Shown here piece by piece: positions 8,753 to 40,478 of a stretch of DNA of 64,000 nt. The notes beneath the pieces are model-generated. The model saw only the letters and a list, made by a program, of their open reading frames with translations, searched no databases and was not told the origin of the DNA. The stretch lies in contig JBMNIW010000001.1 in the NCBI GenBank assembly GCA_050951325.1, positions 224,001-288,000 on the forward strand, given 5' to 3'. The translations under genes and the position numbers were made by a program. Positions within the stretch are counted from its first letter, which is position 1. Every line of letters begins with the position of its first letter. This DNA is from Clostridia bacterium. Its GTDB lineage: Bacteria; Bacillota; Clostridia; UBA1212; DUPL01.

Positions 8753-8772
8753 TCTGAAAGGAGCGTTCTGTC

Positions 8773-9180: not shown

Positions 9181-9204
9181 GGCCGCACATTATGCGGCTT
9201 TTTT
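9179..9204 (+). terminator. Intrinsic terminator
   Basis: GGCCGCA-catta-TGCGGCT followed by a T-run. Confidence 0.75.
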
Positions 9205-9227
9205 GTTTTTTCAAGGGAGATGATTGA

Positions 9228-14401: not shown

Positions 14402-14702
14402 TTGCCCACCTCAATTTCTGCAATGATCTTATCTATTTCTTCCCTCAAAACCTGCTCTCTCGCCACAATCTTTTCAATCTCAGCATTGAGGGCAACAATA
14501 TCAATATTTTCCCTTGTATCCTCCTGTTCCACATATGTTAGCAATCAACTCATCCAATCTACTCATTTGCCCACCTCAATTTCCGCAATAATCTTATCTA
14601 TTTCCTCCCGTAAAACCTGCTCTCGTGCCACAATCTTTTCTATCTTAGCATTGAGGGCAACAATATCAATTTTTTCTCTCGTATCCTCTTGTTCAACATA
14701 GG
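14375..14702. repeat. Diverged 165-bp tandem duplication of hsdM 3' end plus hsdS start
   Basis: hsdS ATGs at 14401 and 14566 are 165 bp apart; both copies encode YVEQEDTRE.IDIVALNA.IEKIVAREQVLREEIDKIIAEIEVGK and MSRLDELIA, with mostly synonymous differences. Confidence 0.9.
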
Positions 14703-22981: not shown

Positions 22982-23842
22982 TTACCCTTCATTCTTCCCA
23001 GTCTTTATGTTGATAACCAGCATCCCCAACATTATAAACACGCCGCCGATGAGGGTTCTGACAGTCAGTATATCTCCTACAAATATGGAGAAAATGGCTA
23101 CAAAAAGTGGTTCTGACAGGAATATAATGGCTGCATGGGTAGGGTCTGTGTAGGGCTGCATCTTGTTCTGCACCATGTATGCAACCACAGTACTGAATAC
23201 CGCTATAAACAAAACTGAAAGAACCGTGGTTTTGTTTATGGGAACGTAAAACTTCTCCACTGCCATGGAAGGTATGAAAGACAAAAGACTTACCACCAGC
23301 ATTTGCATAAATGTGGTCTCAAGTATGTATTCACTTTTTGCATACTTGCCCACCAGCAAAATCTGAAAGGCATAAGCTACTGCACTGACAACCAAAAGAA
23401 CGTCACCAATATTGATTCCAGAAGATCCTTCAATCGACATTACAGCAAGACCAAACAAACTTATTCCCACTGCAAAAACAGTCTTTAAATCCGGCAGCTT
23501 TCTGTATATTACAGCAGTTATTACAGGAACAAATATTGAATACAAACCTGTAAGAAAACCGGCCTTGCTTGGGGTTGTATATAATAGGGCTATGGTTTGC
23601 AGAAGACTTCCCAGAAACATGGACAAACCTATAAGAGCTCCACCTTTTATACTTTCCTTCTCTGTTTTTCTCAATCTTTTAACCACAAAAGGAAGTAATA
23701 TAATTGTGGCAATGGAGTATCTTGTCAGCATGAAAGTATAAGGGCCAATATGTTGGAGAGCAAGGCTCATTACCGGCATGCCCGCTCCCCAAATCATACT
23801 AATAACCAACAAAGAAATATCCGCTTTTAGTTGTTTACTCAT
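22982..23842 (-). CDS. DMT/EamA family transporter
   Basis: About 10 hydrophobic segments, IWG start, SKAGFLT, AAII..SEP.F. Confidence 0.88.
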   Translation of the reverse strand: MSKQLKADISLLVISMIWGAGMPVMSLALQHIGPYTFMLTRYSIATIILLPFVVKRLRKTEKESIKGGALIGLSMFLGSLLQTIALLYTTPSKAGFLTGLYSIFVPVITAVIYRKLPDLKTVFAVGISLFGLAVMSIEGSSGINIGDVLLVVSAVAYAFQILLVGKYAKSEYILETTFMQMLVVSLLSFIPSMAVEKFYVPINKTTVLSVLFIAVFSTVVAYMVQNKMQPYTDPTHAAIIFLSEPLFVAIFSIFVGDILTVRTLIGGVFIMLGMLVINIKTGKNEG

Positions 23843-23857
23843 TCAATCCTCTTTCTA

Positions 23858-25642
23858 TCAATCTATTTTGTAATTCACAGCCTGTGACTGGAACAACTTG
23901 TAGTACAAACTATCCGTCTTCTTGAGCAGATTCTCATGGGTGTCGTAATCCTGCACCTTTCCCTTCTCAATAATCAGCACTCGGTCGCAGAATACGCTGC
24001 TGGACATTCTGTGGGATATGTATATGGCAGTTTTCTTACCAATCAGTTTGTTGAAGTTTGCATATATATCTGCTTCAGCAATCGGATCAAGAGCTGATGT
24101 CGGCTCATCAAGAATCACCAGCGAAGCATCCTTGTACAAAGCTCTTGCTATTGCAATCTTCTGGGTCTGACCGCCTGACATCTCGATACCTTTTTCATCG
24201 TATGCCTTTCCAATTCTCGAACGGATGCCCTCTGGAAGACTCTGCACCTTTTCCGTCATGCCCACTTCTTCCAGAATAGCCATGGCTCTTTCGGTATCTT
24301 CTCCAACATCCTTGCAGGTAATGTTCTCCTCAATACTGAATGCAAACAGTTTGTAATCCTGAAAAACCGCAGCAATCTTCTTCATGTAGCTTGTGTAGTC
24401 ATACTCAAACACATCCCTGCCGTTTATTAATATCTTGCCTGACATAGGTCTGTACAGCCTGCAAACAAGCTTTACCAAGGTAGTCTTTCCAGCACCGTTC
24501 AATCCTACAATGGATATCTTCTCACCCTTTGATATCTTGAAGGATATGTCATCAAGGACAAGCATGTCGCTTCCAGGATACTTGAAGGATACATTTCTAA
24601 ACTCAATGGATTCAACCTCTCCTTCAGACTCCACATCTCCGCCCACATCCTTTTCATCAGGCAGAGACATGAATTCCATGAAAGGATCCAGAAATCTCAA
24701 TGTCTGACCCATCATGACGATGTTTTTGGAAAGCTCGGTTGTCTCCCTTGCAAAGTTTATGGCACTAGACACATACATGGAAAAGGAACCTATGCCTATT
24801 CTTGGTCCGAACCAGTCGGTTGCCACCCTTAAAGCAACGTATCCGTATGCAATTGCAGCCTGCAGGTCGTTTATGATTCCATTAACACCTGTGACTACTC
24901 CCTGTTTTTCGTAGTATCCTGAGAACCAGTCATTTATCTCCTTGTTGTACTCCGTCACCCTGTCTGAGAGCATCTTGTTCATGCTGTAGAGACGGATGTC
25001 CTTTTGCAGTCTGTTGTCATAGCACAAGTCAAGATAATAGCCGTACTTCCTGTTGACAGGTATTATCTGAGAAAAGAAATTTACCTGGTAGTTCACAAAA
25101 GCGAAGTATATAACAATGCCTATGACAACAGTGACAAGAAGCATAAGTACAAGAATACGGCTCAGAAATAACATTATAGCAAAAAGGCCTGCAATTGTGA
25201 ACACGTTCTTGAATATGAATGCAATGCTTTTAACCAGCCCCAGCATAGCCTGCTGGTTTGTGGTGGCAAACACAGCCCTTTCTTTCAAATCAAGATAATA
25301 TGGGTTTTCAAGGTACGAAAACTCCACATTCATAATTTTTTCACCCATTGCATAATTCATCTTTTCCGACATGTACCTGTTTTTTACCTCCATGGTCCTT
25401 TTCATAAGGTTGTTCAAGAATGCAAAGAAAATATTTGCAAGTACAATTGCGCACACAAAGAAAACAATTATGCCAACTTCTCTTTCTCCCAACAACTCGT
25501 CAATCAAAAACTTTGGGAGTACAACATTTGCAATAATCTGTCCTCCTCCAGCAATAGTGTTGACTATGAGAAGGAGAATGTATGAGGGGGATATCTTCCA
25601 TGACAGTGAGAAAAACATCCTTATCTTCTTCAAATTATTCAT
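23858..25642 (-). CDS. ABC transporter fused permease/ATP-binding protein
   Basis: N-terminal TMD; GLNGAGKT, VFQD, MSGGQ, ILDEPT, SHR; ATG at 25642 after GGGAGG. Confidence 0.93.
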   Translation of the reverse strand: MNNLKKIRMFFSLSWKISPSYILLLIVNTIAGGGQIIANVVLPKFLIDELLGEREVGIIVFFVCAIVLANIFFAFLNNLMKRTMEVKNRYMSEKMNYAMGEKIMNVEFSYLENPYYLDLKERAVFATTNQQAMLGLVKSIAFIFKNVFTIAGLFAIMLFLSRILVLMLLVTVVIGIVIYFAFVNYQVNFFSQIIPVNRKYGYYLDLCYDNRLQKDIRLYSMNKMLSDRVTEYNKEINDWFSGYYEKQGVVTGVNGIINDLQAAIAYGYVALRVATDWFGPRIGIGSFSMYVSSAINFARETTELSKNIVMMGQTLRFLDPFMEFMSLPDEKDVGGDVESEGEVESIEFRNVSFKYPGSDMLVLDDISFKISKGEKISIVGLNGAGKTTLVKLVCRLYRPMSGKILINGRDVFEYDYTSYMKKIAAVFQDYKLFAFSIEENITCKDVGEDTERAMAILEEVGMTEKVQSLPEGIRSRIGKAYDEKGIEMSGGQTQKIAIARALYKDASLVILDEPTSALDPIAEADIYANFNKLIGKKTAIYISHRMSSSVFCDRVLIIEKGKVQDYDTHENLLKKTDSLYYKLFQSQAVNYKID

Positions 25643-26157
25643 TGTTTTTGCCTCCCTCATTGTAGTATTTGCCTTGAATTACAAACATCTCGTAATAGCT
25701 TCCCCGTTTGGCCATAAGCTCGTCATGGCTTCCGTATTCTTTAATACCGTCATTATCCAGCAGAACTATCTTGTCGCAGAACTTTGTGCTTGCAAGCCTG
25801 TGCGATACAAAAATTGAAGTCTTGTTCTTTACCAGTTCGTTAAAATTCTCATATATCTCAGCTTCCGCAAGAGCATCCAGAGAAGCAGTAGGCTCATCAA
25901 GAATTACCATATTGCCATCCTTGTACAAAGCCCTTGCAATGGCAAGCTTCTGATTTTCACCACCCGAGAACTCAATACCCTTCTCATCTATAATTTTCAG
26001 CATCATTTGGTCAAGGCCTTTTGGCAAATTTCCAACCTTGTTTCCAAGACCCACCTTGTCCAAAGACTGAACAACTTTTTCCTTGTCAATGTTTTCCGAC
26101 CTGCAGGCAACATTCTCGGCAATGGTGAATGCTAATACATTAATATCCTGGAACACT
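25635..26157 (-). pseudogene. ABC transporter, 3' fragment (gene interrupted by integrative element)
   Basis: Starts at the Q-loop (VFQD) and contains FSGGE, ILDEPT, SHR; lacks Walker A, which is in 37945-39230. Confidence 0.92.
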
Positions 26158-26217
26158 ACTGGAAATCGTGTATACGTTTATAGCGTATCGAGGGTTCGAA
26201 TCCCTCTCTCTCCGCCA
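26158..26217 (+). tRNA. 3' fragment of tRNA-Ser(GGA) carried in the att site (not a complete tRNA)
   Basis: ACTGGAAATCGTG, long variable arm (ATACG..CGTAT), T-arm GAGGGTTCGAATCCCTC, TCTCTCCGCCA; the 5' anticodon-stem strand CACGA is at the other element end (37941-37945). Confidence 0.88.
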
Positions 26218-26221
26218 AATG

Positions 26222-26254
26222 ACAAGGGTTTGCAAGAATTTGCAAACCCTTTTT
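26222..26254 (+). terminator. Hairpin after the tRNA fragment
   Basis: AAGGGTTTGCAA-gaat-TTGCAAACCCTT followed by T's. Confidence 0.75.
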
Positions 26255-26284
26255 ACATGCTTATTTTTCTGCTAAAAAGTCTAT

Positions 26285-26311
26285 TTGCTAAAAATTTGCT
26301 AAAAAATGATT
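26285..26311. repeat. Putative integrase arm-type sites (left copy)
   Basis: TTGCTAAAAATTTGCTAAAAAATGATT, identical to 37797-37823; built of TGCTAAAAA units. Confidence 0.75.
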
Positions 26312-26385
26312 TAAGACAGAACAGAATAGAAAAGGATAAACTGAAAAGTTTTGTTGCCAATCTCAACCCAAAATTTCTTTATCAT

Positions 26386-27576
26386 TTATTCAAATAGGTT
26401 TGTCTGTACAGCATCAGAGGCCTGTTCCTTTCTTTCCAATGCATCTTGATATATGTCAGCGGTAATAGTTACAGAACTATGCCCTAGCATCGCAGAGGTC
26501 ACTTTTAAATCTACATTTGACTCTAGCATTAATGTGGCATAACTGTGGCGTAAATCATGAAACCTAATTATAGGAAAATTGTTTTTCTCCAATAATTTTC
26601 TGAACTTCTTGCTAAAATTCTTCGGGTTTAATGGGGTTCCATCATTATGGCAGCAGACAAGGTCATTATCGATATAGTCCGACCCTATCATTTTTTTAAT
26701 TTTCTCTTGTTTCTCTTTATGTTCAAGCAATAATTCCACTAAACCCTTGGGCATAGGGAGTGTCCTTATACTGTTTTCTGTTTTCAAGGTAGTTAACTCA
26801 ACAATCTTTTTCTGCTCGTTATAACTTGCCTGCTGTCTTATCTCTACTTTTCCAGTATTAAAATTAATATTCTTCCACTGAAGTCCCAAAACCTCGCCAC
26901 GCCTTAACCCTAAAGAAACCCCTAAAGTTACAGGTATATACAAATCTGTTCCATTTGCGGCTTCTAATAGTATTTTCAGCATATTAGCATCATAAATATT
27001 GTTTTGGTATTTCCTCACAGTAGGCCTTGATACGCCTTCTGCCGGATTTCTTATTAGAATACCATCTCTGACAGCATCTTTTAGCGCTTTATTCAATACT
27101 CGATGAATATATTGAATAGACCTTGCTGATAATTTTTTAGATTTATTTTCATCATTATTGCTGCCACCCCCATCATATAGGTCGAAGTAAAACTTTTGGA
27201 TTTGTCCTCTAGAAAGTTGTTGGATAGGTACGTGACCTATGTTAGGAATTATATGATTTTCAATATTGACCCTGTAACCCCTTAGTGTATTACTGCTTAG
27301 CCTTGGCCTGCAATGTGTGCCGTACCATTTAGTAAGGTATTCCGCCAAGGTCATCTTTGTCGGTTCTATATAGGTATTGGAGTTAATTTTAGCGTTTATT
27401 TCGTATAATGCTTCCTGGGCTTCTTTCTTGGTTTTGAAGCCCCCCTTCCATCGTTGCTTCTTTTTCCCCGTCTTTGGGTCTATTGGGTAATATAATATTG
27501 TCCATGTATTTCCACGCTTAAATGGATTCCCCCGTTTGCCATACCTTCGAGTTTTACCGTTAGTCTCATTTTTCAA
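26386..27576 (-). CDS. int: Tyrosine recombinase/integrase
   Basis: N-terminal arm-binding region (GGFKTKKEA), GLRRGE, KT, FHDLRHS, LGHS...T.DIY. Confidence 0.95.
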   Translation of the reverse strand: MKNETNGKTRRYGKRGNPFKRGNTWTILYYPIDPKTGKKKQRWKGGFKTKKEAQEALYEINAKINSNTYIEPTKMTLAEYLTKWYGTHCRPRLSSNTLRGYRVNIENHIIPNIGHVPIQQLSRGQIQKFYFDLYDGGGSNNDENKSKKLSARSIQYIHRVLNKALKDAVRDGILIRNPAEGVSRPTVRKYQNNIYDANMLKILLEAANGTDLYIPVTLGVSLGLRRGEVLGLQWKNINFNTGKVEIRQQASYNEQKKIVELTTLKTENSIRTLPMPKGLVELLLEHKEKQEKIKKMIGSDYIDNDLVCCHNDGTPLNPKNFSKKFRKLLEKNNFPIIRFHDLRHSYATLMLESNVDLKVTSAMLGHSSVTITADIYQDALERKEQASDAVQTNLFE

Positions 27577-27644
27577 TTTTAATTCCTCCTTTACAAGATG
27601 TTCTAAGACTGCGCCTCTGTTAAAGAAGCGCAGCCACTTGCTTT

Positions 27645-27851
27645 TTATGAGACTCTCTCCTCATGTGAGGAGTTAAGCCACTCAAAAAATGGTTGTGTCG
27701 GTATCCTAATAGCATTCTTTATTCTTATATGAGGGAATAGGTTCTGGTGTACAACCTCATAGGCCTTACTTCGACCAATCCTTAGAATCTCTGCCACCTC
27801 AGGAACAGTTAAAGTAGCCTGCTTTTTATAATCTTCAATGCTCCTAGTCAT
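27645..27851 (-). CDS. xis: Excisionase-like HTH protein
   Basis: LTVPEVAEILRIGRSKAYE...FPHIRI...IRIP...F.EWL; directly upstream of int. Confidence 0.85.
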   Translation of the reverse strand: MTRSIEDYKKQATLTVPEVAEILRIGRSKAYEVVHQNLFPHIRIKNAIRIPTQPFFEWLNSSHEERVS

Positions 27852-28078
27852 TTCGATTCCTCCTTTGTGTTTTAATGATATTAATGCCTGTTTCTATATG
27901 ACTCTTTATATAAAAAGTTCTGATTGGGATTCAACTTTTTATGGTAAGTTTTGTCCCTACATTTGTAGCATAACACAAAAAAATTGTACGGTTTTTATCC
28001 CCCTATTCTTCTGAATCTCTTCTGGTACAATATGGGGAAGACATGAAATGTTTACATAATCCAATATTGCTAGTAATA

Positions 28079-28120
28079 AAAAAAGGCTTTAGTAGATTCA
28101 TAGTCTACTAAAACCTTTTT
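28079..28120. terminator. Bidirectional terminator after the three-gene operon
   Basis: AAAAAAGG(C)TTTAGTAGA..TCTACTAAA(A)CCTTTTT. Confidence 0.7.
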
Positions 28121-28149
28121 GATGGCGCTATAGAGTTTACCCTAATCTG

Positions 28150-29019
28150 TCAGAAAATTAAATGTAACGTGTCATCCTCTAACATATCCAAAAATGCTAT
28201 ATTATCTATCACTCTTTCTTGCTCTTCAATTGAATTATCCTGTTTCTTCCTAGTGAATTTAATCCTTCTCGCCTGCCTATAACTATTTACAAATGAATCA
28301 ATATTATCACGCTTTATATATCCAAGCCTTGTCCATTCATAAATTAAAAAGTCGTTTGACTTAAAAGTTATGGACGTATATCTTTTATCTCTAAAATAAT
28401 CTTCTTTATAAATCTTTTCCTTTGCTTTAGAGATAAAGTCATAAGCATCTCTATCACTGCTGAAGATAGTAATAGTATCAATCTTTTCACTGTAAAAATA
28501 GGAAAATATATAACTTAGAACACAAATTGAAATCTCGCCTGCATTTTTTCTCTGAATTCTACCGTTTGCAAGTTCCCTTTTATCCAGTCCCTCATTATAA
28601 ATTATATCTAACCATTCCTCATAAGGAGCCAAATCTTCTACTGGTCTCCCTTGCAGAATGTTTCTCTTTATAAATCCAACAAGCCTACTCACATTGTTGC
28701 AACTATACAGAAATATATAATACAATGCTGCTTCTTTATAATCCACTAATGCTGCGTAATCAACCTCATCTATAATTTGGACCTTTGAAAAATGCTTTAA
28801 ATTATAGATATAATTTTTCCTCTTTTCACTATCACAAACCTCTACCCACACCCATTTAGGTATAAAAATTATATCATACTGACAAAATATCTTTTCAGGG
28901 CCAATCCTATCATACATCCGGGTTAAAAACTCAATTGAATTATTATCTAAAATACAAACTTTGAGGGACTTGCCCTTAGAAAGATATTCTTTTAAGCAGT
29001 CAATATCTTTCCCTTTCAT
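28150..29019 (-). CDS. Hypothetical protein with PIN-like acidic motifs
   Basis: VCILDNNS, IPKWVWVEV, NAGEISI, FSSDRD follow the D/E/E/D order of PIN nucleases; ATGA overlap with the upstream gene. Confidence 0.55.
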   Translation of the reverse strand: MKGKDIDCLKEYLSKGKSLKVCILDNNSIEFLTRMYDRIGPEKIFCQYDIIFIPKWVWVEVCDSEKRKNYIYNLKHFSKVQIIDEVDYAALVDYKEAALYYIFLYSCNNVSRLVGFIKRNILQGRPVEDLAPYEEWLDIIYNEGLDKRELANGRIQRKNAGEISICVLSYIFSYFYSEKIDTITIFSSDRDAYDFISKAKEKIYKEDYFRDKRYTSITFKSNDFLIYEWTRLGYIKRDNIDSFVNSYRQARRIKFTRKKQDNSIEEQERVIDNIAFLDMLEDDTLHLIF

Positions 29020-29810
29020 TTAGAGAGTCCCTCCAGCCCTTCTTGAATTTTACTCTTTATTTCTAACAAATAACTATAATTATCTTTATGATATGAGACA
29101 TCTGGATTCTCTTCCATAACCTTTTTCATTTTTTTCTCCAAGCCACCTAAATTTACTACATATGAGGGTTTTACTAACTCGGAATCTAGCCCTAAATCTA
29201 TAAATTTCTGCACTAAATTTATAGATTTGTTATCAAAATGCTCCACAATCTCTTTCTTTAATTCTAAATCATTATATTTAGTAGTGGCTTCTTCAAATAG
29301 TTCTATCAGCACCGCCTTATATGGTGCCTTATATGCGTCCATACATTTTATAACCCTATCAATGAAATCTTCATCATCTAACGAGTAGTAATATTCATAT
29401 ACATTGCCAAAAATCATTTTTGCAGCAAAATAATCTGCCTTTCTTTCATTCAAATCCATATCAACTGCAATATTGTGTGTTTCTTCGCTCAAATTAAGGT
29501 CATAAAACAGGTGATAAATTTCATGCCATGCTACAAAATACTGATATACACGGGGCTGGGCTGTGTTTATCACTGGTATTTTGATGTTTTCCTTTGTAAT
29601 TATAGCCCCACCCCAATATTTATCATCAATAGGAATTTGAATTAAATGATGCTCTTTTAACACGGAAAAAGACAGTTTGTCTTGCCCTGCCATCCCCACC
29701 CTATTAAATCTAACTGTAAAATCATTTGTTAATCTTAATATATCATCTTTAATCAATTTATTTTTTTCAATAACCTGCTCCAGGTTCTTGCTAGTTATTA
29801 GTTCTGACAT
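29016..29810 (-). CDS. ImmA/IrrE-family Zn metallopeptidase
   Basis: IN..QP..YQYFVAWHEIYH (HExxH) ... ERKADYFAA. Confidence 0.85.
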   Translation of the reverse strand: MSELITSKNLEQVIEKNKLIKDDILRLTNDFTVRFNRVGMAGQDKLSFSVLKEHHLIQIPIDDKYWGGAIITKENIKIPVINTAQPRVYQYFVAWHEIYHLFYDLNLSEETHNIAVDMDLNERKADYFAAKMIFGNVYEYYYSLDDEDFIDRVIKCMDAYKAPYKAVLIELFEEATTKYNDLELKKEIVEHFDNKSINLVQKFIDLGLDSELVKPSYVVNLGGLEKKMKKVMEENPDVSYHKDNYSYLLEIKSKIQEGLEGLSK

Positions 29811-29822
29811 AATTTCACCTTC

Positions 29823-30197
29823 TTAACCATAGTATAGTTCATACATGTGAACTATATCTTCTAAAATACCGAACATCTCCTGAGCATTAGAGGTTAAGGT
29901 ATGGTCATCTGGAGCATTATCAGATAGGGCAAAAACAAAATCCCTTTTTTCCTTGTGTCTTGGAGTATAATGCAAAAGTTGTTCAGCATCCATATCCTGG
30001 CTTTTTAGTATTTTACTAATATGGGTTCTAAATGTTGAGAGATTGTCAACTTCTCCCTTAATTAGTTTATCTAAAGTAGGCCTTGAAATAGTTGTGAGCC
30101 TTGAGAAGGATGACTTGGTATATCCGTTATCCTTTATGATGTTTAATATATTTTCACCAATTAATTTTCTGTTTTCAAACAATAATTCTATAATCAT
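29823..30197 (-). CDS. XRE-like HTH protein
   Basis: IGENI..IIK..GYTKSSFSRLTTISRPTLDKLIKGE; GGGAGG RBS. Confidence 0.75.
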   Translation of the reverse strand: MIIELLFENRKLIGENILNIIKDNGYTKSSFSRLTTISRPTLDKLIKGEVDNLSTFRTHISKILKSQDMDAEQLLHYTPRHKEKRDFVFALSDNAPDDHTLTSNAQEMFGILEDIVHMYELYYG

Positions 30198-30722
30198 TTT
30201 TTACACCTCCCACCTTATTATATCCTAAATGTCAATAAAAAGATACCGTTTGTAAAGTATTTTTTTACATTCTTTCGTTTTTATCCTTTCCGCTGTAAAA
30301 CTCTTAATCTAAGGTGGCATAGTTAAATCTATTTTCTGCTGCTGTTTAGCATTTTATTAATGAAGAGTGTTATCTTTCGTATTATAATTTCTTATATAAT
30401 CCCAATATGCCTTTACTTCAGCCTGTTCTAACATATTAAAGATGCTTTCAATATCATCGTAAAATTTTTTATATGTCTTCAAAATATGGGGAGCCATTTT
30501 AACTTTTAAGTGTGGAAGGGAGTAATTGCAATATACCAAATCTCTCAAAACCAGAAATTAGGTGCGAACTAATAGAAATAAATTTGATTTTATTAGTATA
30601 TAAAAAGAATTTATATTCTCTTAACTCAACCATTAATCAACCTAAAATACTGTGTATCTTTACTAAATACTTTATCAGTATTAAAAACATATAATTAACT
30701 GTAAAATCCTTCCCCAAAATAA

Positions 30723-31512
30723 CTAAAACTTATCAATATCTTCTACTCTATAATATTTCTTTGTAGTTTCTCTAATATTATTCTTAGCCATTTCTTTTGT
30801 TTGTTCTAACTCTTCAGTAGACAATTGCCCTTTTGACATTAGTAATTTAAACAATTCTTCATTTAAATTATAAACATATGCCAAAATATTCATGATGTTG
30901 CTAAATTCAGGCTCAAAAAACTTCGATATAGATGACTCTTTATTGTCATAAACATCCTCAACTAGTACAATGTCTTTTTTAATATATCCATCATTTTCAG
31001 ACCAAATGACTTTCCCAAATCTCATTTTTTTAACTTCATCACTGATACCTTTTCTTATTACATCAAGGTAGATGTTCTCCTTCGTGGCCATATCAAGTTT
31101 TTCAGCATCTTCTTTTGACAATTTTATCTTTGAATTTATTATAATAGCATCATCATAACTTTCATTAAATTCGTAAGGTACTACTTCAAATCCTGCAATA
31201 ACTAAACTATCTATTGCTAATTCCTCAACTTCTTCTAAGCGCAAAGTATAAGTATAAACTGTATCTTCATCAGTATTATTCCCTGTATAACTAAAGAAAT
31301 GATTCACCAATCTATACTCTCTAATAGTTATACCATTGTTATCAATATTAAAAATTCCCCCGTTTTTAGCCTTGCTCAATGCGTTTTCAAGAGTATTCTT
31401 TTGGGTTTCACCTATAACTTGTAATCTAAAGGATAATATCTCAAGTTGTTTTCCTGTATGTGGTGATACTTTTGGCTCACCATAATCCACATTTGATACA
31501 TTAATTATATGG
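30723..31512 (-). pseudogene. Hypothetical protein with 5' end truncated by IS21
   Basis: Long open frame whose annotated N-terminus reads out of the IS21 left end; native start not visible. Confidence 0.6.
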
Positions 31513-31664
31513 TGTTTATTGCATAATATAATTCCCCGAAATTGCAAAGCAAAATTCCCCACTTTTGCAACGCAAAACTCCCCATAATTGCAAAAGGCCA
31601 TTGCAGGCACCACACCAATAAATTATCCTTGTGTTTGTGGATAAATACAAGGAGGTAATGGAGG

Positions 31665-33173
31665 ATGCTAACAATGACCCAAGTAAAGAATATCAGAAAA
31701 ATGTATTTTGAGGAAGGGAAAAATATTAGTCAAATTTCCAGTGAAACAGGACATTGCCGGAAAACTGTAAGAGGATATCTAAGCAAAGAGGATTGGAATG
31801 AGGAAATACCAAAAGTAAAAAAGAAAAATAACTTTCCAAAACTTGAGCAATTCAAACCATTAATCGATACATGGCTTTATGAAGATAAGAAAGCCAAACG
31901 AAAACAAAGGCATACTGCCACACACATATATAAACGTTTACAAGAAGAATGTAATGGTTTCAACTGCTCCTATAGAACTGTTGCAAGTTATGTTTCTCAA
32001 AAGAAAAAGGAGATTTTTAGTACAAAGAACGCATATCTACCTTTGGAGCATATTCCAGGAGAAGCACAAGTAGACTTTGGAAGTGCTGACTTTTATGAAA
32101 ATGGGAAGCTATATAGCGGCAAGTACCTGAATCTGTCATTCCCGTATAGCAATAAAGGATATCTCCAGTTATTCAAGGGAGAAAACCAGGAATGCCTGTT
32201 TGAGGGTTTGAAAACAATATTTGAGCATATAGGAGGTGTACCAACCAGGATATGGTTTGATAATACAAGCACTATTGTTACCAAGGTGATTAAGGGAGGA
32301 GCTCGGAATCTGACAGATGACTTTTTGCGTTTTAAAGAACATTACCGTTTTGAGGCAGCCTTTTGCAATGTTGAGGCTGGTCATGAAAAAGGGAATGTTG
32401 AAAACAAAGTAGGCTATCATAGACGCAACCTTCTTGTCCCTGTGCCGAAATTCCAGAGTCTGATAGACTTCAATAAAGAACTTCTGCAGAAGTGCGAGAG
32501 TGATGCCAAAAGAGAACATTACCGAAAGGAAGGGACTATTGAAGATCTGTATAGAGCTGATTCTGAATCTCTTTTAGAGCTGCCGGCGACATCTTTTGAT
32601 GCAAGCAAATACATAACGGTGAAAACCAACGGATATGCCAAGTTTGTGCTTAACAATGGCATGCATGAATATTCTGTAGCACCCAAATATGCAAATGAGC
32701 ATGTATTGGTAAGGTTGACAGCCTTTAATGTAATAGTTCTTGACGAATGCTATCGTGAAATAGTGCGTCATGACAGACTTTATGGCGATAGCAAACAGCA
32801 AAGTATGCAGTGGGTGCCATATCTTGAACAGTTGGCAAGGCGACCAGGTGCATTGAAGTATACAGGAGTATACCAAATGCTACCACAACCATTAAGTGAA
32901 TATATGGAATGCTTAAACAAGAGGGATAGAGGGAATGTGCTAATGGTTATAGCAAGGCTGACACAAAAAGGTAGTTTTGAACAAGCTGTTGGTACTGTAT
33001 GTGCAGCATTGCAGCATGGTGTTACTGATGTAGACAGCCTTTTAAGTTTGCACCGACGACTTTATGAGAATATACCTCAGATTGAGCCTGTGCGACTTCC
33101 AGAGCATATTCCACAATTGATAAGATATGAACCTGATCTTACTGCTTATGATAAAAACTTAGGAGGGAGGTGA
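31665..33173 (+). CDS. istA: IS21 transposase
   Basis: N-terminal HTH, PGEAQVDFG, GGVP.RIWFDN, EKG.VE. Confidence 0.95.
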   Translation: MLTMTQVKNIRKMYFEEGKNISQISSETGHCRKTVRGYLSKEDWNEEIPKVKKKNNFPKLEQFKPLIDTWLYEDKKAKRKQRHTATHIYKRLQEECNGFNCSYRTVASYVSQKKKEIFSTKNAYLPLEHIPGEAQVDFGSADFYENGKLYSGKYLNLSFPYSNKGYLQLFKGENQECLFEGLKTIFEHIGGVPTRIWFDNTSTIVTKVIKGGARNLTDDFLRFKEHYRFEAAFCNVEAGHEKGNVENKVGYHRRNLLVPVPKFQSLIDFNKELLQKCESDAKREHYRKEGTIEDLYRADSESLLELPATSFDASKYITVKTNGYAKFVLNNGMHEYSVAPKYANEHVLVRLTAFNVIVLDECYREIVRHDRLYGDSKQQSMQWVPYLEQLARRPGALKYTGVYQMLPQPLSEYMECLNKRDRGNVLMVIARLTQKGSFEQAVGTVCAALQHGVTDVDSLLSLHRRLYENIPQIEPVRLPEHIPQLIRYEPDLTAYDKNLGGR

Positions 33174-33904
33174 TAAATATGCTAACAGCTGATATTGCAG
33201 CATGTTGTAAGACTCTTCGTTTAAGTCGCAATATCGTGGATATGTCGGATAAGATTCAGGCGGACAGTCATCAGGAATATCTGCTTAAATTGCTTCAATC
33301 AGAAATCTCACATCGTGATATAGTGAGAAAGAATAAACGATTAAACAAAGCTGGGTTTTATACTATTAAGACATTTGAAAGCTTTAGGTTTGACGAAGTG
33401 ACACTTCCTAGTGGAATAACTCCTGAGTACCTGAGAGAGTGTGAGTTTATCAAAAACAAAACCAATATCGTCATGTATGGCAATGTTGGCACAGGCAAGA
33501 CACATCTTTCAATAGCATTGGGTGTTGAGGCCTGTAAAAGAGGGTTTGAGGTAGCTTTTTACAGGACAACTGCGCTTGTTAACAAGCTTGCAGAGCACAA
33601 GAAAGCTGGAACCTTATCCACTTTCCTTAAGAAACTAAGCAAAGCAGACCTACTGATCTGTGATGAGTGGGGATACGTCCCACTCGACCGGATTGGTGCG
33701 CAACTTCTCTTTGAGGTAATATCAGAGCGATACGAAAACAAGTCTGTAATTATTAATACCAACATTGAGTTTTCAAGGTGGGTAAACATACTTTACGACG
33801 AGCAAATGACAGGTGCAATAATAGATCGAATTCTACATCATTGTCACTTGCTTTTATTCTCTGGTCAAAGCCACAGGATGCGTGAAGCAAGACTTGGCCA
33901 TTGA
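33170..33904 (+). CDS. istB: IS21 helper ATPase
   Basis: GNVGTGKTHL, LLICDEWGY, ISERYE, AIIDRILHH. Confidence 0.95.
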   Translation: MINMLTADIAACCKTLRLSRNIVDMSDKIQADSHQEYLLKLLQSEISHRDIVRKNKRLNKAGFYTIKTFESFRFDEVTLPSGITPEYLRECEFIKNKTNIVMYGNVGTGKTHLSIALGVEACKRGFEVAFYRTTALVNKLAEHKKAGTLSTFLKKLSKADLLICDEWGYVPLDRIGAQLLFEVISERYENKSVIINTNIEFSRWVNILYDEQMTGAIIDRILHHCHLLLFSGQSHRMREARLGH

Positions 33905-34087
33905 AAACTTAGTAAAAAGGTTGCGGGGAAACCATAAAAATTCCCCACCCGGTGCCTGGGGAAAAATTTTTGCAAAACTGGGGAATTTACTATTGCAAAA
34001 AACACCTTGTTGAGCATATTGTCTTTGGTGCATTCCTTCATCTTCTTTTTGCTTTGTTTGCATGGAAAATAACTATGCCCTAAGGGA

Positions 34088-34118
34088 AAGAGCCCGGTAA
34101 TATTGCCGGGCTCTTGTT
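34088..34118. terminator. Hairpin downstream of the GNAT gene
   Basis: AAGAGCCCGGTAA-ta-TTGCCGGGCTCTT. Confidence 0.65.
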
Positions 34119-34148
34119 CATTTATTGTTAATTTTTATTATTATAAAG

Positions 34149-34790
34149 TCAAAATTCATTTACCTTTGATGCTTTTACTGCTCCTAAAAACTCCCTAGGT
34201 ACTTGTGCAAACTGTAACTTTTGAAAGTCCTCCTTAAACATAAAGGACTTTAAAATGGGTAAGGATTCTTCCAAATCATTTTGTCTATATCCAATTGCTG
34301 GGTCTGTCAGTAAAGCAAATCCAAAATCTGAATACAATTTTATTGCTCGGAAACTAGATGGGTGTGTATGAAGAAAAACAGGATATTCATTCTCTGGAAT
34401 GCTTTTCATAACAATAGAAAGCAGTGCCCTTCCAATGCCCAATCCTTCGTATTCTTTCATAACTTTAAACCAATGTATCGTAGTGATTTTATCGTAGGCC
34501 TTCCATGCAAAACAGGTTCCGATAGGAGCATTGTTTTCATCACAAACAAATAAACACTTTTTAAAAAATAAATCTTCTTTGCTAGCATAGACATCATTGA
34601 AATACTTTGTCATAAAATCACTATATTGCTCAGCAGTCTTTTCATCATCAAAGGGCATCTTTTTCCATATATCTAATTCATCCCTTCTACAGGTTCTTAC
34701 ATAATATCCATCTGGCAACTCAGCAAGGGCACTTGTATTCAATTTTTTACACATCATAAATAGATTCTTATCGGGAATTTCTTTTTCCAT
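34149..34790 (-). CDS. GNAT-family acetyltransferase
   Basis: IHWFKV..EYEGLGIGRALL, AIKLY..FGF; ATG at 34790 after AAAGGAG. Confidence 0.85.
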   Translation of the reverse strand: MEKEIPDKNLFMMCKKLNTSALAELPDGYYVRTCRRDELDIWKKMPFDDEKTAEQYSDFMTKYFNDVYASKEDLFFKKCLFVCDENNAPIGTCFAWKAYDKITTIHWFKVMKEYEGLGIGRALLSIVMKSIPENEYPVFLHTHPSSFRAIKLYSDFGFALLTDPAIGYRQNDLEESLPILKSFMFKEDFQKLQFAQVPREFLGAVKASKVNEF

Positions 34791-34857
34791 AACACAAACT
34801 CCTTTATAATGAGAACTAGTTTTAATAAACTGAACTTCAGCCACTATTTAAAATTTG

Positions 34858-35150
34858 ATGTTTCTTCCGCTACAATGTCCCGAGTAACGCCAAATTTGTC
34901 ATAAATGGCTGCATGAAATGTGCTTTAATATGTTTTAGTGGGTGGAAGCGAAATCTCAGCATTTTCATTCACCCATCAAATATTTTCTATGCTTCTGTAA
35001 AAATAGGTACTGCTGCAGTTAGCCTAACTATATTCCCCTTTTCTAAAATGTCAATTTCATCAGCAAACCAAAAAGTTATTCCGCAGATTTGCATTTCAGC
35101 ATATAAAATCCAGGTGCTTATATCAGATGGCGGAATCTTAATACCAGGAT
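34858..35150 (-). pseudogene. VOC/PhnB-like remnant
   Basis: Manual translation with stops/shifts: ILYAEMQICGITFWFADE...SLPPTKTY*STFHAAIYDKFGV. Confidence 0.55.
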
Positions 35151-35427
35151 AAATTTAAAAATAAAACCGTTATTCTTTGATTATAATAATATATCTTTTT
35201 TATTTAAATGGACTTTACCATTATAGATTATATCTTGATAGATGTATTCATAGGAATATAATCCTCGAAATAATTAAGTATATCCTTCAACTTATAATTA
35301 GGTCTGGCAGATGCTATGTAAAAATAACCATTATTTTCATTTTCGATTACCATAACATTTTCAAAATTTTTATTGAAAAATATATTCCCCCAAGTATAAC
35401 GATTTTTAGTCGCACTATATCGTATCA

Positions 35428-35709
35428 TTATTTATTTTTTAGTTCTAAAAGTATAGGTGTTATATTTAGTACAATAGATATAATCGTCAAAATCCATAAC
35501 CACATTTCCATAGTAGGTACAACATCTAATAAAGCCGACCAATCTTTCACTTTTACCCACTTAGATACAAGGCTGTATTCTGAACAAAGTGTTAATGCTG
35601 TAAACGATAATCCTATTGCCATAGTAAGTTTATAATCTTTCCCTGTTTTATACATAAAAAGATTTATAAAAGTTGCTACTATAGCAATAACTCCTAATAT
35701 TAACCACAT
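35428..35709 (-). CDS. Small membrane protein (about 3 TM)
   Basis: MWLILGVIAIVATFINL...SFTALTLC...EDWSAL-like KDWSALLDVVPT. Confidence 0.7.
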   Translation of the reverse strand: MWLILGVIAIVATFINLFMYKTGKDYKLTMAIGLSFTALTLCSEYSLVSKWVKVKDWSALLDVVPTMEMWLWILTIISIVLNITPILLELKNK

Positions 35710-35834
35710 AGTTATACCCCCATTATATTTTCCTTTAGTGTACATAATCCTACTTAAACGTCATGAATTTTCAATCTCAGCCTAATTTTCATATTATTAT
35801 ATCATTTCTTATCCTTAATAGAAGATGAAACTTC

Positions 35835-36300
35835 CTAAAAGGAGTGATTCAATAATACGCATACATAAGAAATAAGTTTTTTAAGCATATTTTCTTCAGG
35901 TTCAGGCTCAACAATCCCTGTTATTTCAAATCCTATTTTTATGAGACTATTTAAGTATATAGTAAGTGCTCTGTGATATTTAATAACTTCCTCTCCTAAA
36001 AATTTAGCATTACGAATACCTTCCGTAAAATAATGGTCAACTGGCCAATGCAGAATATTACCCTTATCATCATAATACCAATCTTGAGGGTCTTGTGCTG
36101 TAAAAATGGGATGCTCTACAGAAAATACAAAATCTCCACCTCTTGAAAGGCATTTATATACTTTATCTAAAACATCCCCAAAGGATTTAATATAATGAAG
36201 CACCAGGGAACTGATAACAACCTCAAAGGATTCCTCAGGAAAATCTATATCTTCGATTGGCATACAGATATACTCGATATTCTCGTATTTTGTTTTGTTT
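35835..36300 (-). pseudogene. Class I SAM-dependent methyltransferase fragment
   Basis: FPEESFEVVISSLVLHY, GGDFVFSVEHP, KYHR; lacks the N-terminal SAM-binding GxG motif and the C-terminus. Confidence 0.75.
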
Positions 36301-36362
36301 CATTGTAATCATCCCTTGCATATTTTCCCAATTTTCTTGCAATTAAGTTTCTTGTTTTAAAC

Positions 36363-37416
36363 TCAAGACTTGTATAATCCATTTAATAGTTTTAAGAATT
36401 CCGGGTTATCTCTTAAAAATGCTAATTCTTCATCCTCTTTCACTTCTTTAATCAAAGCAGACAAGAATAATCCTTCCAAGGACGAATCATCCTCTTTTGT
36501 TTTGATGTGCCTATATAATGGTGAACTATTGATATCCCACTTATTGGACATTGCTGTAAGCATAGATTTTAATAATTGAACACATTGAGTTGCATCTTGC
36601 TTAAATACAGCCAGTTCGAAATAAGCCACATAGGAGTCATAATCCCATAAATCATATAACTTGGCTGTTTTATGAGAAATATCTGCAATATATTCTGCTT
36701 CCTCTATTTTATTTTCCTTAAGATGAATTTCCATTAGTTTTAATAGAATTGTTTGGATTTCTTTAACTTCCTCAATTAGTTTCTTTTCTAAAATCTCTAA
36801 TGCTTGGTAATATTTCTTTTGTCTTATATAAAGATTTACTTGTAACTGTCTTTTGTCAAGTGAATGTTCAGGCAGAACATCTATTAGTTCTTGTACTTTA
36901 TCATATTCCTGTCGTTCTATTCGTTTTGAAATCAACTTTGATAATACATGGTTACGAATATCTGTATCTTTGCTATTGGCAATGCGTTCATACATCCTTT
37001 CTATCTGTTCATAATATTTTGCGTTTTCTCCATCATCAAACATAGACAATGAGCCTTCCAATAACATTGCAACCGTATAAATTAATTTATCACAACATGG
37101 ATATTCTTGTATTTTTTTCATTGCCATTTTATAACCGAACTCAAACCCTTTTTTTCTGTATTGCAGTAGCCAAATCATTAGCAAAATTACCTATTTCATT
37201 ATCTGTTAAATCTTCTTTAAATGATAGTAATGTATTTAAATCTGTCTTAAGTAATCTAGCCAAAGCAGGTAGTAATGTAATATCTGGGTAAGACACTCCT
37301 TTTTCCCACTTGTTTACTGCTGGAGTAGAAACCCCTAAATACTTTGCAACATTCTCTTGAGTTAAGTTTTGTTCTTGGCGTTTTTTCTTTATTATCTCAT
37401 TTATCTTCATAGCCAA
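36363..37416 (-). pseudogene. XRE-HTH regulator with helical C-terminal domain, frameshifted at an A7 run (~37150)
   Basis: LTQENVA.YLGVS.PAVNKWEKG.SYPDITLLP in 37141-37416; removing one A joins it in frame (IQKKGFEFG) to 36363-37184. Confidence 0.8.
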
Positions 37417-37796
37417 TCACCTCATACTTCTTTAATAGTCTTTTGATATTTTAATTATATTGGAACCAGACACCCTAGGCAATTGACCGTTTGTTAATCT
37501 TTGTTCAAAAAAGTTTATCTGTAGTTAATTATCTTGTATAACTTATAATATCTTAGACAAATTTGAATTTGTCTGCGACTAAATTTCGGGTAGGTTACAC
37601 TAAAATGGTAGGTTGCCTCTGGCTTTGTAAAGGGTGAGTGCAACGAGTTCATCTCACTTAGATAAGCAAATAAAACAGTCACCAATTTGAACATCACGGA
37701 TACAGTTTTTTAGTATAGTTGACCATGTTATCCTTATGGATAAGTCCAATTGTCTTTACATTTTCCCCTATTAGACCTTTGTAAAGTGCTAAAATC

Positions 37797-37823
37797 TTGC
37801 TAAAAATTTGCTAAAAAATGATT
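37797..37823. repeat. Putative integrase arm-type sites (right copy)
   Basis: Identical 27-bp direct repeat of 26285-26311. Confidence 0.75.
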
Positions 37824-37925
37824 CTGGACAGACTAAAATTGAAAGGAATTAGATGAGATACTAATGTAGCACAAACCCTGATATATCAAGGTTTTTAGGG
37901 AATATCCACAATAAAATGATATGGC

Positions 37926-39230
37926 CTAAAATGCCTCTGGCACGACTGAAAACATAGAGTAGAGTTCCTTCTTGTCAAACTCTCCAATAGGTATCCCATT
38001 TATTAAAATCTCACCTTCTGTAACGTCAAAAAGACCAGTTATCAGTTTTACCAAGGTACTCTTGCCCGCTCCATTTATACCAACAACCGCCAGTTTTTCA
38101 CCTTTTCGAATCTTTAGATTGAGATTCTTGAATATGTAATTGTCGGTATTGGGATATTTAAAGCTTACATTTCTAAGCTCTATTTCAAGAGTGTTTTCGA
38201 CAACAGCCTTCCTTTCTCCACCTTTAACTCCCAGATCCTTGTCCATAAACTCATAAAAATCATGAACATACTGTCCCTCGTTTATAATAAAGGAGGTGTT
38301 GTCAATGAGGGTTTTCAGCATCATTGACAGGCTGACTATTGCGGACAAATACATCAAAAAGTCCGCTATGGGCATGCCATTCAAAGCCTTTACAACCAGT
38401 ATTCCATAAGTAGCCGCATCACTTATCAAAAGAGCTGCCAGACCTGCAAATCCAATCAGGAACTCCTTGTTCCTAATAATTCTGTGAATACCTATGTACG
38501 CCTTTATTTCATCATCATAGTTTCTCAGTATTCTATCCTTTAGATTATGTATCCTTATGTCTTTACCAAAACCAAAGTCATGGGTTGTGTTGTAATAGTA
38601 GCGGTTTCTTCTTTCCGCATGAGAAAGCTCTTTCCTCTTCTCATAATGGTAGTTGTGTACTTTTCTGTTTATCCACATTACACAAAATACATTCAGGATG
38701 TGGGCAAGAAGCACAAATATGTTCAGCCCCCCAATAAACACAACAAGAACAATGGAAGTCAATAGCACTGCAAAGCTTTCAAACAGTTTGTGGTATACAC
38801 CTTCTATACCGTTGTTGTTCGAACTTACAGCTTCAAAGGCCTTGTTGTTAACTTCGAAGAAGGACGCATCCTCCATGTATTTGTAATCCACACTAAGAAG
38901 CTTGTCATACATGTCCCGGATATAGTCGATACGGAGTCTTGTAATACGTGGATATGCATAGTCATGAGAATAGGCTTTTACAAATCCAAATATGGCAGTC
39001 AGGACAAAGTACATTGAAACAATCAAAATAATATTCCGTACCTTTGCACTTCCGCCCATGGAAAGCTCTTCAATCAGGAACTTCGGAAGCATGATTGCAA
39101 ACAATGGATAAACAGCGGCAGTTATTGTGTAAATGGTAAAGTACACAAATATTGTTCTGTTTTGTGCGTGCATGTTCTTTATTAGTCCTTTTATCACCTT
39201 ATGTATTGGATACGCTACAAATTTCTTCAC
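37926..39230 (-). pseudogene. ABC transporter, 5' fragment (interrupted by integrative element)
   Basis: TMD plus Walker A GINGAGKS; ends LYSMFSV, then reads VPEAF* from element sequence. Confidence 0.92.
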
Positions 39231-40324
39231 AGAATTTCCTCCTTGTTTTGGTTTTCCATGGCCAGGTCAACAATCTTGTATCCTATGCTGCCAAGCCTGT
39301 TTGTATTTAGTTGATAATATACCCTTCTTGCACTCTCATCCCCTACCGTGATAGACACAATCTCCGACTGCATAAGGATATCCATGTGATGGGACACGGT
39401 TGCAGGTGTAAGGTTAACGTTATCGGCAATTTCCTTCATGTACATGTCCTTTTCCTTAAGCAACCTAATAATCTTAATTCTTGTTGGATCGCTTAAAGCT
39501 TTTAAAGCGCTTACCATGCTCTCGTCACTTACCTTGTTCTTCTCTCTCATGTCATATAGCTTGAGAAAATACATGCCCAGAATAAAAAACTCCACATCGC
39601 TTTTCAGCTCCACCCTCAAGCTGTTAAAGCCAAAGACGGATACATAGATATTGGATTTCTGCCTGCATGTATTTTTCAAATTTACAAAAGAATCAAAGAT
39701 GTCAAACACATCAGGTACCTCATTCAGAAGACTCCATGCATCCATGTAGTCGTCTTCGATAATGTGGAAATGTCTTTTACATGCAGGAACACACTTATCA
39801 ACAAGCTCCCACATTCCTCTGACATTTTCATATCTTTTGTTGTACAACTTTATAAGTTTCACCTTCAGTGAGTCATCAATGCTTTTGTCCACCAGGTTTG
39901 TGACAAGACTCTGCAAATCCTCTATCTCAACATCCTTGTCCTTGCCGGCATGGTCGTATTCAAGGAATATATCGGTAATGTATTCCTTTACCACATCGTC
40001 AATATCCTCATCTGTCAAATCATTCTTGGCACCCATAAGTGTAACCAAACCAAGAGCAATACCTCCCTTGGGTTCGGACATGTTTTCAATAGGCTCAAAA
40101 AGCCAATGATACGACGGATTACTGTCATACAAAGGCAGTATATCCTCAAGGACAGCCTTTTTGTACAGTTTATACTTTTCAAAGAAAGATTCCATCTTTT
40201 CCTTGGTCATTCCAAACTTTGTGTGGTTTGCGATTACCTTTTCCTCAGCTTCCATGTAGTATTCACATAAACAGGAAACCACTTCATATGCCCAAAATGG
40301 TGATTTGTGTATTGCATAGTTCAT
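39227..40324 (-). CDS. Regulator with C-terminal ArsR-type winged HTH
   Basis: LKALSDPTRIKIIRLL...EIA....LTPATVSHHM..L; first gene of the ABC operon. Confidence 0.85.
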   Translation of the reverse strand: MNYAIHKSPFWAYEVVSCLCEYYMEAEEKVIANHTKFGMTKEKMESFFEKYKLYKKAVLEDILPLYDSNPSYHWLFEPIENMSEPKGGIALGLVTLMGAKNDLTDEDIDDVVKEYITDIFLEYDHAGKDKDVEIEDLQSLVTNLVDKSIDDSLKVKLIKLYNKRYENVRGMWELVDKCVPACKRHFHIIEDDYMDAWSLLNEVPDVFDIFDSFVNLKNTCRQKSNIYVSVFGFNSLRVELKSDVEFFILGMYFLKLYDMREKNKVSDESMVSALKALSDPTRIKIIRLLKEKDMYMKEIADNVNLTPATVSHHMDILMQSEIVSITVGDESARRVYYQLNTNRLGSIGYKIVDLAMENQNKEEIL

Positions 40325-40478
40325 AGAAAACCCTCCTTCATGAAAACAAAGGTACTTTACAATCATGTTAGATGTTTGTCAATATTGTTATACTCTTATC
40401 TAATGTAATTTTTTCTTGCCACGTACAAAAACTCATTCAGCATAATCGGTAACAGGTAAATTATGGAGGTTGTGCATA

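Follow-up and report, generated by a model that had tools for sequence, protein, structure and literature searches.

We analysed a 64,000-nucleotide stretch of DNA from a Clostridia bacterium (positions 224,001 to 288,000 of contig JBMNIW010000001.1, assembly GCA_050951325.1), which is called the window below and in which position 1 is the first letter. An element of 11,787 bp (26162-37948) splits a minus-strand gene of the window that encodes a 602-aa ATP-binding cassette (ABC) exporter. The N-terminal fragment now ends as a 434-aa open reading frame (ORF), the final 4 residues of which are encoded by the element. Taken together, the two fragments have the architecture of an exporter-type ABC half-transporter (PF00664 and PF00005, split over the fragments), and the Walker A, Q-loop, signature, Walker B and H-loop motifs were visible in the fragment alignments. 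A second gene of this type, the partner, lies adjacent. It shares 26 nt with the end of the split gene and is now downstream of the insertion. A gene for an ArsR-type regulator lies upstream, overlaps the start of the split gene and belongs by its position to the same operon. The exporter has no close paralogue in the genome, in which the partner (27% identity) was the sole other match. The genes around the operon are ordinary chromosomal genes.

Junctions, native target and site of insertion

The left and the right junction string each occurred once in the window (26150-26170 and 37938-37957, respectively), where neither was expected by chance. The sole identity between the junctions is 4 bp, ACTG. 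When 26162-37948 was removed in silico and one ACTG was kept, an ORF of 1809 nt (602 codons and a stop) was obtained, which reads KELYSMFSVVFQDINV across the joint. Its product aligned without gaps to an uninterrupted 602-aa homologue (P0002; residues 3-602, 78.7% identity), and for annotation the two ABC fragments are one interrupted gene. The inner halves, when joined, gave the 17-nt stem-loop CACGA-CTGGAAA-TCGTG. The loops differ at the junctions (CTGGAAA at the left, CTGAAAA at the right), which is compatible with strand exchange inside ACTG and also with an overlap of 7 bp, the central mismatch of which segregated at replication. Precise excision would change TCA to CCA (Ser to Pro, codon 428) if the attP-type base were retained. 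A preliminary description of the window had claimed these junctions with their shared ACTG, the perfect anticodon stem-loop, the restored 602-aa frame, intact integrase and excisionase genes and a possible Ser-to-Pro variant. These claims hold: the integrase (396 aa) and the putative excisionase (68 aa) are both full length, the same 17-mer is present in tRNA-Ser(GGA) genes that adjoin related integrases (see below), and the codon arithmetic is correct.

To these strings we compared contigs of sequencing runs. The runs listed numbered 24, all as Logan contigs, and four of them (X1, X11, X4 and X15) were compared with the window over 23500-40000. With more than 31 bases, independent contigs of X1 bridged both junctions, those of X11 the left and those of X4 the right; across the left junction X4 had a bridge of just 26 letters, and X11 had no listed piece across the right junction. 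Further, two metagenome contigs (L019 and L020) bridge the right junction. The preliminary description had made the reality of the insertion depend on spanning sequence, and contigs of separate runs do cross both junctions. Metagenome contigs break inside the tRNA-like T-arm (~26185-26215), as they might around a chimeric joint of island and ABC gene, but the bridging of both junctions in separate runs, the right junction in L019 and L020 and the fit of the gene fragments to the base exclude an assembly artefact. Word depth rose 25- to 90-fold in the T-arm bin (26185-26215), and contigs from each of the four runs break there. The tRNA-like stretch is common to many organisms in the samples, which accounts for both and makes depth at the left junction misleading. 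Neither an empty-site joint (~26161 to 37949) nor a circle back-joint was found in the contigs of the four runs, and such contigs drop rare forms. The other joints listed lay elsewhere and had short sides (20-53 letters), except for a replacement of 34808-35880 that is described with the cargo.

There are islands and prophages that target tRNA genes, recombine within the anticodon loop and contain the 3' part of the tRNA. In the element, attP contains the tRNA sequence 3' of the crossover point: an element-borne 3' half (26162-26217) that begins with the second half of the anticodon loop and ends in CCA. No complete tRNA was called by ARAGORN in the 64-kb window. An integrase scan with one genome per species gave seven loci (L012-L018), of which L015, L017 and L018 (25-46% identity) and L016 (56 residues matched, at a locus without a tRNA) were left out. 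The remaining three encode full-length relatives of the integrase (L012 and L014, 94% identity; L013, 83%). A complete tRNA-Ser(GGA) that contains CACGACTGGAAATCGTG lies directly downstream of the integrase gene (int) in all three, each time with the anticodon stem-loop that the inner halves rebuild. L012 shares the backbone from int to the helix-turn-helix (HTH) gene at 90-95% DNA identity and has different cargo. In G041, the genome of L014, the right end of a related element is 90% identical and stops at ...CACGACTG, after which comes a 3' remnant of tRNA-Ser; this fixes both the element boundary and the crossover at ACTG. The right end of L012 was not found within its 10-kb flank, and a search of genome G040 matched only the arm repeat beside the tRNA.

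Run X15 lacks the host flanks (depth 0 at 38377-40000) and contains pieces of the element with 0 differences, and one of its contigs passes from the tRNA half of the element into a tRNA-Ser 5' half (window 26154). Thus, a near-identical copy of the element lies in the proper tRNA site of another organism. By these comparisons of sequence, the native target of the element family is the anticodon stem-loop of tRNA-Ser(GGA). The tRNA-Ser 5' half in X15 begins GGAGAGG and pairs with the acceptor strand of the element with one G:U, better than does the tRNA of the window's host.

The host genome has one tRNA-Ser(GGA), on contig C5, with a terminator-like hairpin (by eye) directly after it. This copy, the occupancy of which had been raised in the preliminary description, is empty, since the Ser T-arm string occurs twice in the genome, in this tRNA and in the element only, and no related integrase is nearby (the sole other integrase homologue, 34% identical, is on a different contig). 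Compared with the 17-nt core it has a single change, at the first base of the loop (TTGGAAA vs CTGGAAA), and its acceptor strand GGAAAGA, if paired with the element-borne TCTCTCC, would have A opposite C at 4:69. For tyrosine recombinases, identity beside the cleavage site is most important. The one-base change may block the exchange, or integrants in the only tRNA-Ser(GGA) may have been selected against.

The ABC site, CACTA-CTGAAAA-CATAG, matches the core at 11 of 17 positions. The genome holds 415 sites with at most 5 mismatches to the 17-mer and 2457 with 6, and such counts mark the ABC site as a weak secondary attachment site that resembles the core poorly. The preliminary description had proposed off-target integration at a Q-loop sequence that mimics the tRNA. 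Integration off target is upheld by the three of three relatives at tRNA-Ser(GGA), by attR of G041 and by the mismatches at 6 of 17 positions, whereas the mimicry is weak. Special tRNA mimicry by the Q-loop codons was rejected on the identity counts, as 415 genome sites match better. The pattern CACNACTGNAAA, chosen post hoc, occurs 8 times in the genome.

Distribution and age of the insertion

Among protein variants on record, 23 cluster with the 434-aa fragment, and all 15 that were listed have 434 aa; a second cluster has three further members of 434 aa, its remaining members being shorter pieces. All 18 aligned 434-aa variants (94-100% identical) end in ...SVVPEAF, the tail derived from the element. 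The exact N-terminal fragment was present on 75 contigs and the exact C-terminal fragment on 115, and five of six C-terminal variants start at the junction codon. When lengths of 238-760 aa were searched in the protein collection, the best full-length protein was 77% identical and no intact allele of this species' gene was on record. Further, of the words sampled from 24000-27600, a segment that spans the left junction, 98-100% were present in each of 14 runs, which come from 8 studies of sludge, digester, bioreactor and landfill metagenomes.

A metagenome scan with the N-terminal fragment gave three loci, L019, L020 and L021, the last of which is 65% identical and has no DNA match to the window. 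When the C-terminal fragment was compared with 40 genomes of the same order (G000 and 39 others, none of the same genus or family), only distant ABC matches were obtained (68-90% over short stretches). As to whether other strains have the same insertion, which the preliminary description had asked, every sampled member of the species carries it. An accident confined to a single strain was ruled out by the junction shared by 18 of 18 variants and by the 14 runs from 8 studies.

When L020 was compared with the window, the right end of the element showed 0 differences over 337 bp and the junction was identical, vs 59 differences over 1282 bp in the N-terminal ABC fragment (95.4% identity) and 130 differences over 1912 compared bases plus 8 gaps in the upstream flank (93.2%). 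The first host mismatch of L020 is 102 bp from the right junction. L019 differed from the window at 3 of 4076 bp in the element vs 64 of 4358 bp in the host DNA, and it carries an insertion sequence (IS) of the IS21 family at the same element position. Host flanks thus diverge by 1.5-7% across hosts with a near-identical element, and the element is therefore much younger than the host diversity. The preliminary description had called the integration recent, which holds relative to the host divergence. The host differences of L019 (window 38493-41213) are in short patches with L020 alleles. This mosaic indicates homologous recombination between lineages and points to frequent recombination within the species.

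Between the window and L020, the ratio of nonsynonymous to synonymous substitution rates (dN/dS) was 0.175 for the N-terminal fragment (dS 0.14) and 0.145 for the neighbouring regulator (dS 0.29). The divergence of the two lineages predates the insertion, so dN/dS cannot gauge selection on the split gene; the lineages had diverged under purifying selection by the time that the element arrived.

Gene content of the element

The positions of the element's features and of the operon genes are given in Table 1.

Table 1. Features of the element and of the interrupted operon (window positions; E-values follow the profile names)
Feature	Position	Strand	Basis and remarks
Partner ABC half-transporter, 600 aa	23858..25660	-	ABC_tran 1.5e-34; exporter-type NCBIfam MsbA-like 7.8e-77, below cutoffs
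C-terminal part of split ABC gene: Q-loop, signature, Walker B, H-loop to stop	25635..26161	-	ORF 25635..26156, 173 aa; ABC_tran profile positions 76-137
Left ACTG copy, 4-bp identity, attL crossover point	26158-26161		attP/attB comparison
tRNA-Ser(GGA) 3' half: rest of anticodon loop, 3' anticodon stem, variable arm, T arm, acceptor 3' strand and CCA	26162..26217	+	Aligned with complete tRNA-Ser(GGA) of relatives and host
GC-containing hairpin, then T run, terminator-like by eye	26226..26258	+	Directly 3' of tRNA half
Arm-type direct repeat, left arm, 27 nt exact within 60-nt repeat	26285..26311	.	Putative integrase arm-binding sites
Tyrosine integrase (Int), 396 aa, full length	26386..27576	-	Phage_integrase PF00589 4.4e-25, positions 15-168 of 172
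Excisionase-like (Xis) HTH_17 protein, 68 aa	27645..27851	-	HTH_17 4.8e-11; weak phrog_66 (excisionase) match 1.2e-4; adjoins int
289-aa backbone protein	28150..29019	-	DUF4935/PIN-like by language-model neighbours only (Atlas score 0.95)
M78/ImmA-IrrE-like metalloprotease, 264 aa	29016..29810	-	Peptidase_M78 1e-3, below cutoff; PADLOC PDC-M69B 1.4e-15, capP 3.2e-6
Cro/C1-type HTH regulator, 124 aa, paired with protease	29823..30197	-	HTH_26 2.3e-9; PDC-M69A 1.3e-6
296-aa ORF, no family found (Pfam, NCBIfam, PHROG, PADLOC)	30723..31613	-	Listed 5' end extends into IS
IS21-family insertion sequence	31510..34007	+	istA 31665-33173, istB 33170-33904; IstB_IS21 8.2e-61
GNAT acetyltransferase, 231 aa, cargo	34149..34844	-	Acetyltransf_1 3.4e-12
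Hydrophobic 105-aa ORF, small membrane protein, no family, cargo	35428..35745	-	
Methyltransferase fragment, C-terminal domain half only	35835..36263	-	Methyltransf_11 positions 50-95 of 95
HTH_3 ORF 37141-37416 (91 aa) and TPR-like ORF 36363-37184 (273 aa)	36363..37416	-	HTH_3 2.8e-15; 44-nt overlap, same strand
Arm-type direct repeat, right arm	37797..37823	.	Same 27-nt repeat family D1
Right ACTG copy, attR crossover point	37945-37948		Element end reads ...CACGACTG
N-terminal part of split ABC gene: transmembrane domain, Walker A, to codons before Q-loop	37949..39230	-	ORF 37926..39230, 434 aa; ABC_membrane and ABC_tran positions 1-65
379-aa regulator, ArsR-type HTH	39227..40366	-	HTH_5 1e-12; HTH_metalloreg 1.3e-17

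The element is read as a small integrative island, possibly mobilisable, and as neither an integrative and conjugative element (ICE) nor a prophage. When its 13 ORFs were compared with Pfam and rescanned with NCBIfam and PHROGs, no gene for a relaxase, coupling protein, type IV secretion or replication was found. The same was true of capsid, terminase, tail and packaging-hijack genes, for which there was no convincing match (a weak PHROG tail-assembly match, 8.8e-4, fell on the 91-aa HTH ORF). The other PHROG matches were to integrase, HTH/excisionase-like, metalloprotease, acetyltransferase and regulator-type HTH families only, and no relatives of the integrase were found in IMG/VR.

Besides its catalytic domain, the integrase has an arm-binding N-terminal domain (Arm-DNA-bind_4; PF14657, 1.1e-15) and a SAM-like domain (SAM_3; PF14659, 1.1e-13), and it matched phrog_1 (1.3e-78). 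The motif of the left and right arm repeats also adjoins int in L012, L013 and L014. The element has an intact int, an intact xis and two intact arms and so looks capable of excision; the gene would then be restored, and codon 428 would encode Ser or Pro. The conserved backbone consists of int, xis, the 289-aa gene, the M78-like protease gene and the HTH gene. The 289-aa protein had no match in Pfam, NCBIfam, PHROG or PADLOC; its gene is kept in L012 at 90% DNA identity. Together, the HTH, the M78-like protease and the DUF4935/PIN-like protein could form an ImmR/ImmA-type control of excision or, judged from these family assignments, a protease-regulated defence or toxin module.

A second copy of the IS21-family element lies elsewhere in the genome (contig C7, 79759-82256; 98.4% over 2498 bp). 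The L012 island has a different IS21 relative (74% identical; 7240-9741) between xis and the 289-aa gene, and the window matches on its two sides overlap by 8 bp (27828-27835), as expected of a target duplication. In X1 and X11, a contig that is ~9% diverged has 109 other letters in place of 34808-35880, which indicates that related islands with other cargo co-occur in those samples. The 91-aa HTH_3 ORF was matched in its HTH part by the PADLOC RmrA models (363-400 aa) and weakly by CapH; together with the TPR-like ORF it looks like a single HTH-TPR regulator of RmrA/Rgg-like length that was broken by a frame change. Outside the element, a gene for a type I restriction-modification methylase (HsdM; 14563-16131) lies ~10 kb from the ABC operon.

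Origin and spread of the insertion

We consider it likely that an island specific for tRNA-Ser(GGA) integrated once at a secondary site and inactivated the exporter, and that the insertion then spread by clonal expansion and homologous recombination in the flanks. A small integrative element would have entered a weak secondary site in the first gene of a two-gene ABC exporter operon, with strand exchange in or beside the 4-bp ACTG, and the tRNA 3' half would have been left fused to the C-terminal gene fragment. The split gene would be inactivated, and the downstream partner probably also, by polarity. The choice of an off-target site may reflect the T that the host's only tRNA-Ser(GGA) has for the element's C at the first loop base and, as a second factor, the A4:C69 acceptor mispair with the element-borne 3' half. 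Because the insertion is young and present in every sampled lineage, it would have spread after one event, clonally and by recombination of the flanks; repeated integration at the same site is less likely.

Several points weigh against this account. With its one mismatch and perfect arms, a tRNA site should have been preferred to a site with six mismatches, and the reasons offered for the avoidance of the host tRNA are ones that we infer. An accident that kills a gene is not expected in all sampled lineages, one of them 5-7% diverged, with no empty allele on record; presence in all lineages would also be compatible with a selective advantage of the insertion or of a switch. If the insertion spread by recombination, L020 must have undergone a crossover no more than ~100 bp from the right junction, which is possible but not expected a priori. 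Further, several of the 14 runs may be the assembly source or one campaign, and the left junction was seen in protein variants of 98-100% identity only, not in DNA of a diverged lineage.

The element resembles tRNA-targeting islands in that int is at the end beside the tRNA, the tRNA copy runs from loop to CCA, arm repeats are present on both arms and relatives occupy tRNA-Ser(GGA). Unlike in those islands, the present copy is not in a tRNA, and the junction identity is 4 bp only. Phage lambda uses secondary attachment sites when its primary site is missing or altered. SGI1 likewise uses a chromosomal site of lower affinity when its primary site is missing or altered, according to the available part of its description (PMC2297512). 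Lambda and SGI1 share this behaviour with the element, but their integrase families and targets differ and both are laboratory cases.

The closest known case is ICEBs1 of Bacillus subtilis, which in the available part of its description (PMC3715440) has the same attachment-site architecture and the same consequences. Its tyrosine integrase acts at an attB that is a 17-bp tRNA stem-loop, in which a crossover spacer of 7 bp is flanked by inverted repeats of 5 bp. If this tRNA site cannot be used, ICEBs1 enters protein-coding genes at degenerate copies of the site (2-12 of 17 mismatches), and one such site took 11 of 27 independent insertions. A spacer mismatch results in unlike attL and attR and in heteroduplex on excision; in mmsA, the mismatch in the 7-bp overlap segregated at replication. 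Excision from secondary sites is reduced, and sites that form heteroduplex yield little circle. ICEBs1 also has an HTH and protease module of ImmR/ImmA type. It differs in its tRNA-Leu target, in being a 20-kb conjugative element and in that its insertions at secondary sites were obtained in the laboratory after deletion of attB, whereas the element in the window is 11.8 kb (9.3 kb without the IS), conjugation genes were not detected in it, its insertion is natural and species-wide, and the host tRNA is present with one base different.

An alternative, which we regard as unlikely, is that the ABC site is the de facto primary attB in this host, the tRNA-Ser(GGA) being refractory, and that the window and L020 lineages acquired the element independently. 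This would agree with an element end that is identical in hosts with a flank difference of 5-7% and with a divergence that starts near the junction, and the near-identical element in X15 does circulate in another organism. The preference of ICEBs1 for one secondary site would be a parallel, but the favoured site was the most attB-like one in the part of the report that describes it (PMC3715440), whereas 415 genome sites surpass the ABC site by simple identity. Repeated infection predicts uninfected strains with an empty site, none of which is on record. Further, the flank mosaic of L019 offers another route of spread, and its IS21 is at the same element position.

It is quite improbable, in our view, that the element is a reversible excision switch ('active lysogeny'), in which regulated excision, for example on DNA damage through the HTH/ImmA-like pair, would rebuild the exporter and re-integration would turn it off. 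Precise excision in silico restores the full-length gene, int, xis and both arm repeats are intact, and the HTH and M78-protease pair lies upstream in the same orientation. The insertion in every sampled lineage, with the intact allele not on record, and an exporter without a close paralogue would also suit a switch. Precedents are known, in the parts of the reports available, from comK of Listeria (phi10403S; PMC7397523), hlb of Staphylococcus aureus (phiSa3; PMC6597384) and gerE, spsM and sigK of spore formers (gin, SPbeta and skin; PMC5595907, PMC5499854, PMC5025042). There too, an integrase element that is common or fixed in the population splits a gene, and precise excision rebuilds it. 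In those systems, however, as far as these parts describe them, the gene is the proper attB of the family and condition-specific excision was demonstrated; the family of the present element targets tRNA-Ser(GGA) with a tRNA copy as attP, and the ABC site, which is not the family's own, matches at 11 of 17 core positions only. The preliminary description had noted that both halves are otherwise unmutated. As an argument for a switch this fails, because the element is near-identical across diverged hosts and there has been too little time for decay, so that intact halves are uninformative on selection. The dN/dS of 0.175 resembles that of the neighbouring gene (0.145) and reflects divergence before the insertion. 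Further, when ICEBs1 lies at secondary sites, its excision is impaired, as that part of its description has it (PMC3715440).

Very doubtful, finally, is the idea that the element was co-opted as a stress-responsive on-switch, or was one from the outset, with the HTH/ImmA-like module triggering an excision that would rebuild the cell's only copy of a heterodimeric exporter. If so, the near-invariant element across lineages that are 5-7% diverged would be the mark of a selective sweep for the switch, and the switch would have been born of an off-target integration of tRNA type and not of a gene-specific attB.

How tRNA-specific elements integrate at secondary sites has been well studied in laboratory work on ICEBs1 and lambda, and there such integration is costly to element and host. 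The single secondary-site integration that we favour appears to be a natural and recent case in an uncultured or little-studied bacterium of anaerobic digesters, present in all sampled lineages and in at least 8 studies, while the primary-site form, a near-identical element in the tRNA of another organism, circulates alongside. With the one-base change in the crossover region and the acceptor-stem mismatch of the host tRNA, the locus would be a natural test of site choice, and it may give a view on how an insertion allele spreads through a recombining population. Further, it would provide a simple system, testable by polymerase chain reaction, in which to study whether an insertion that arose by accident can start to work as a switch for a gene.

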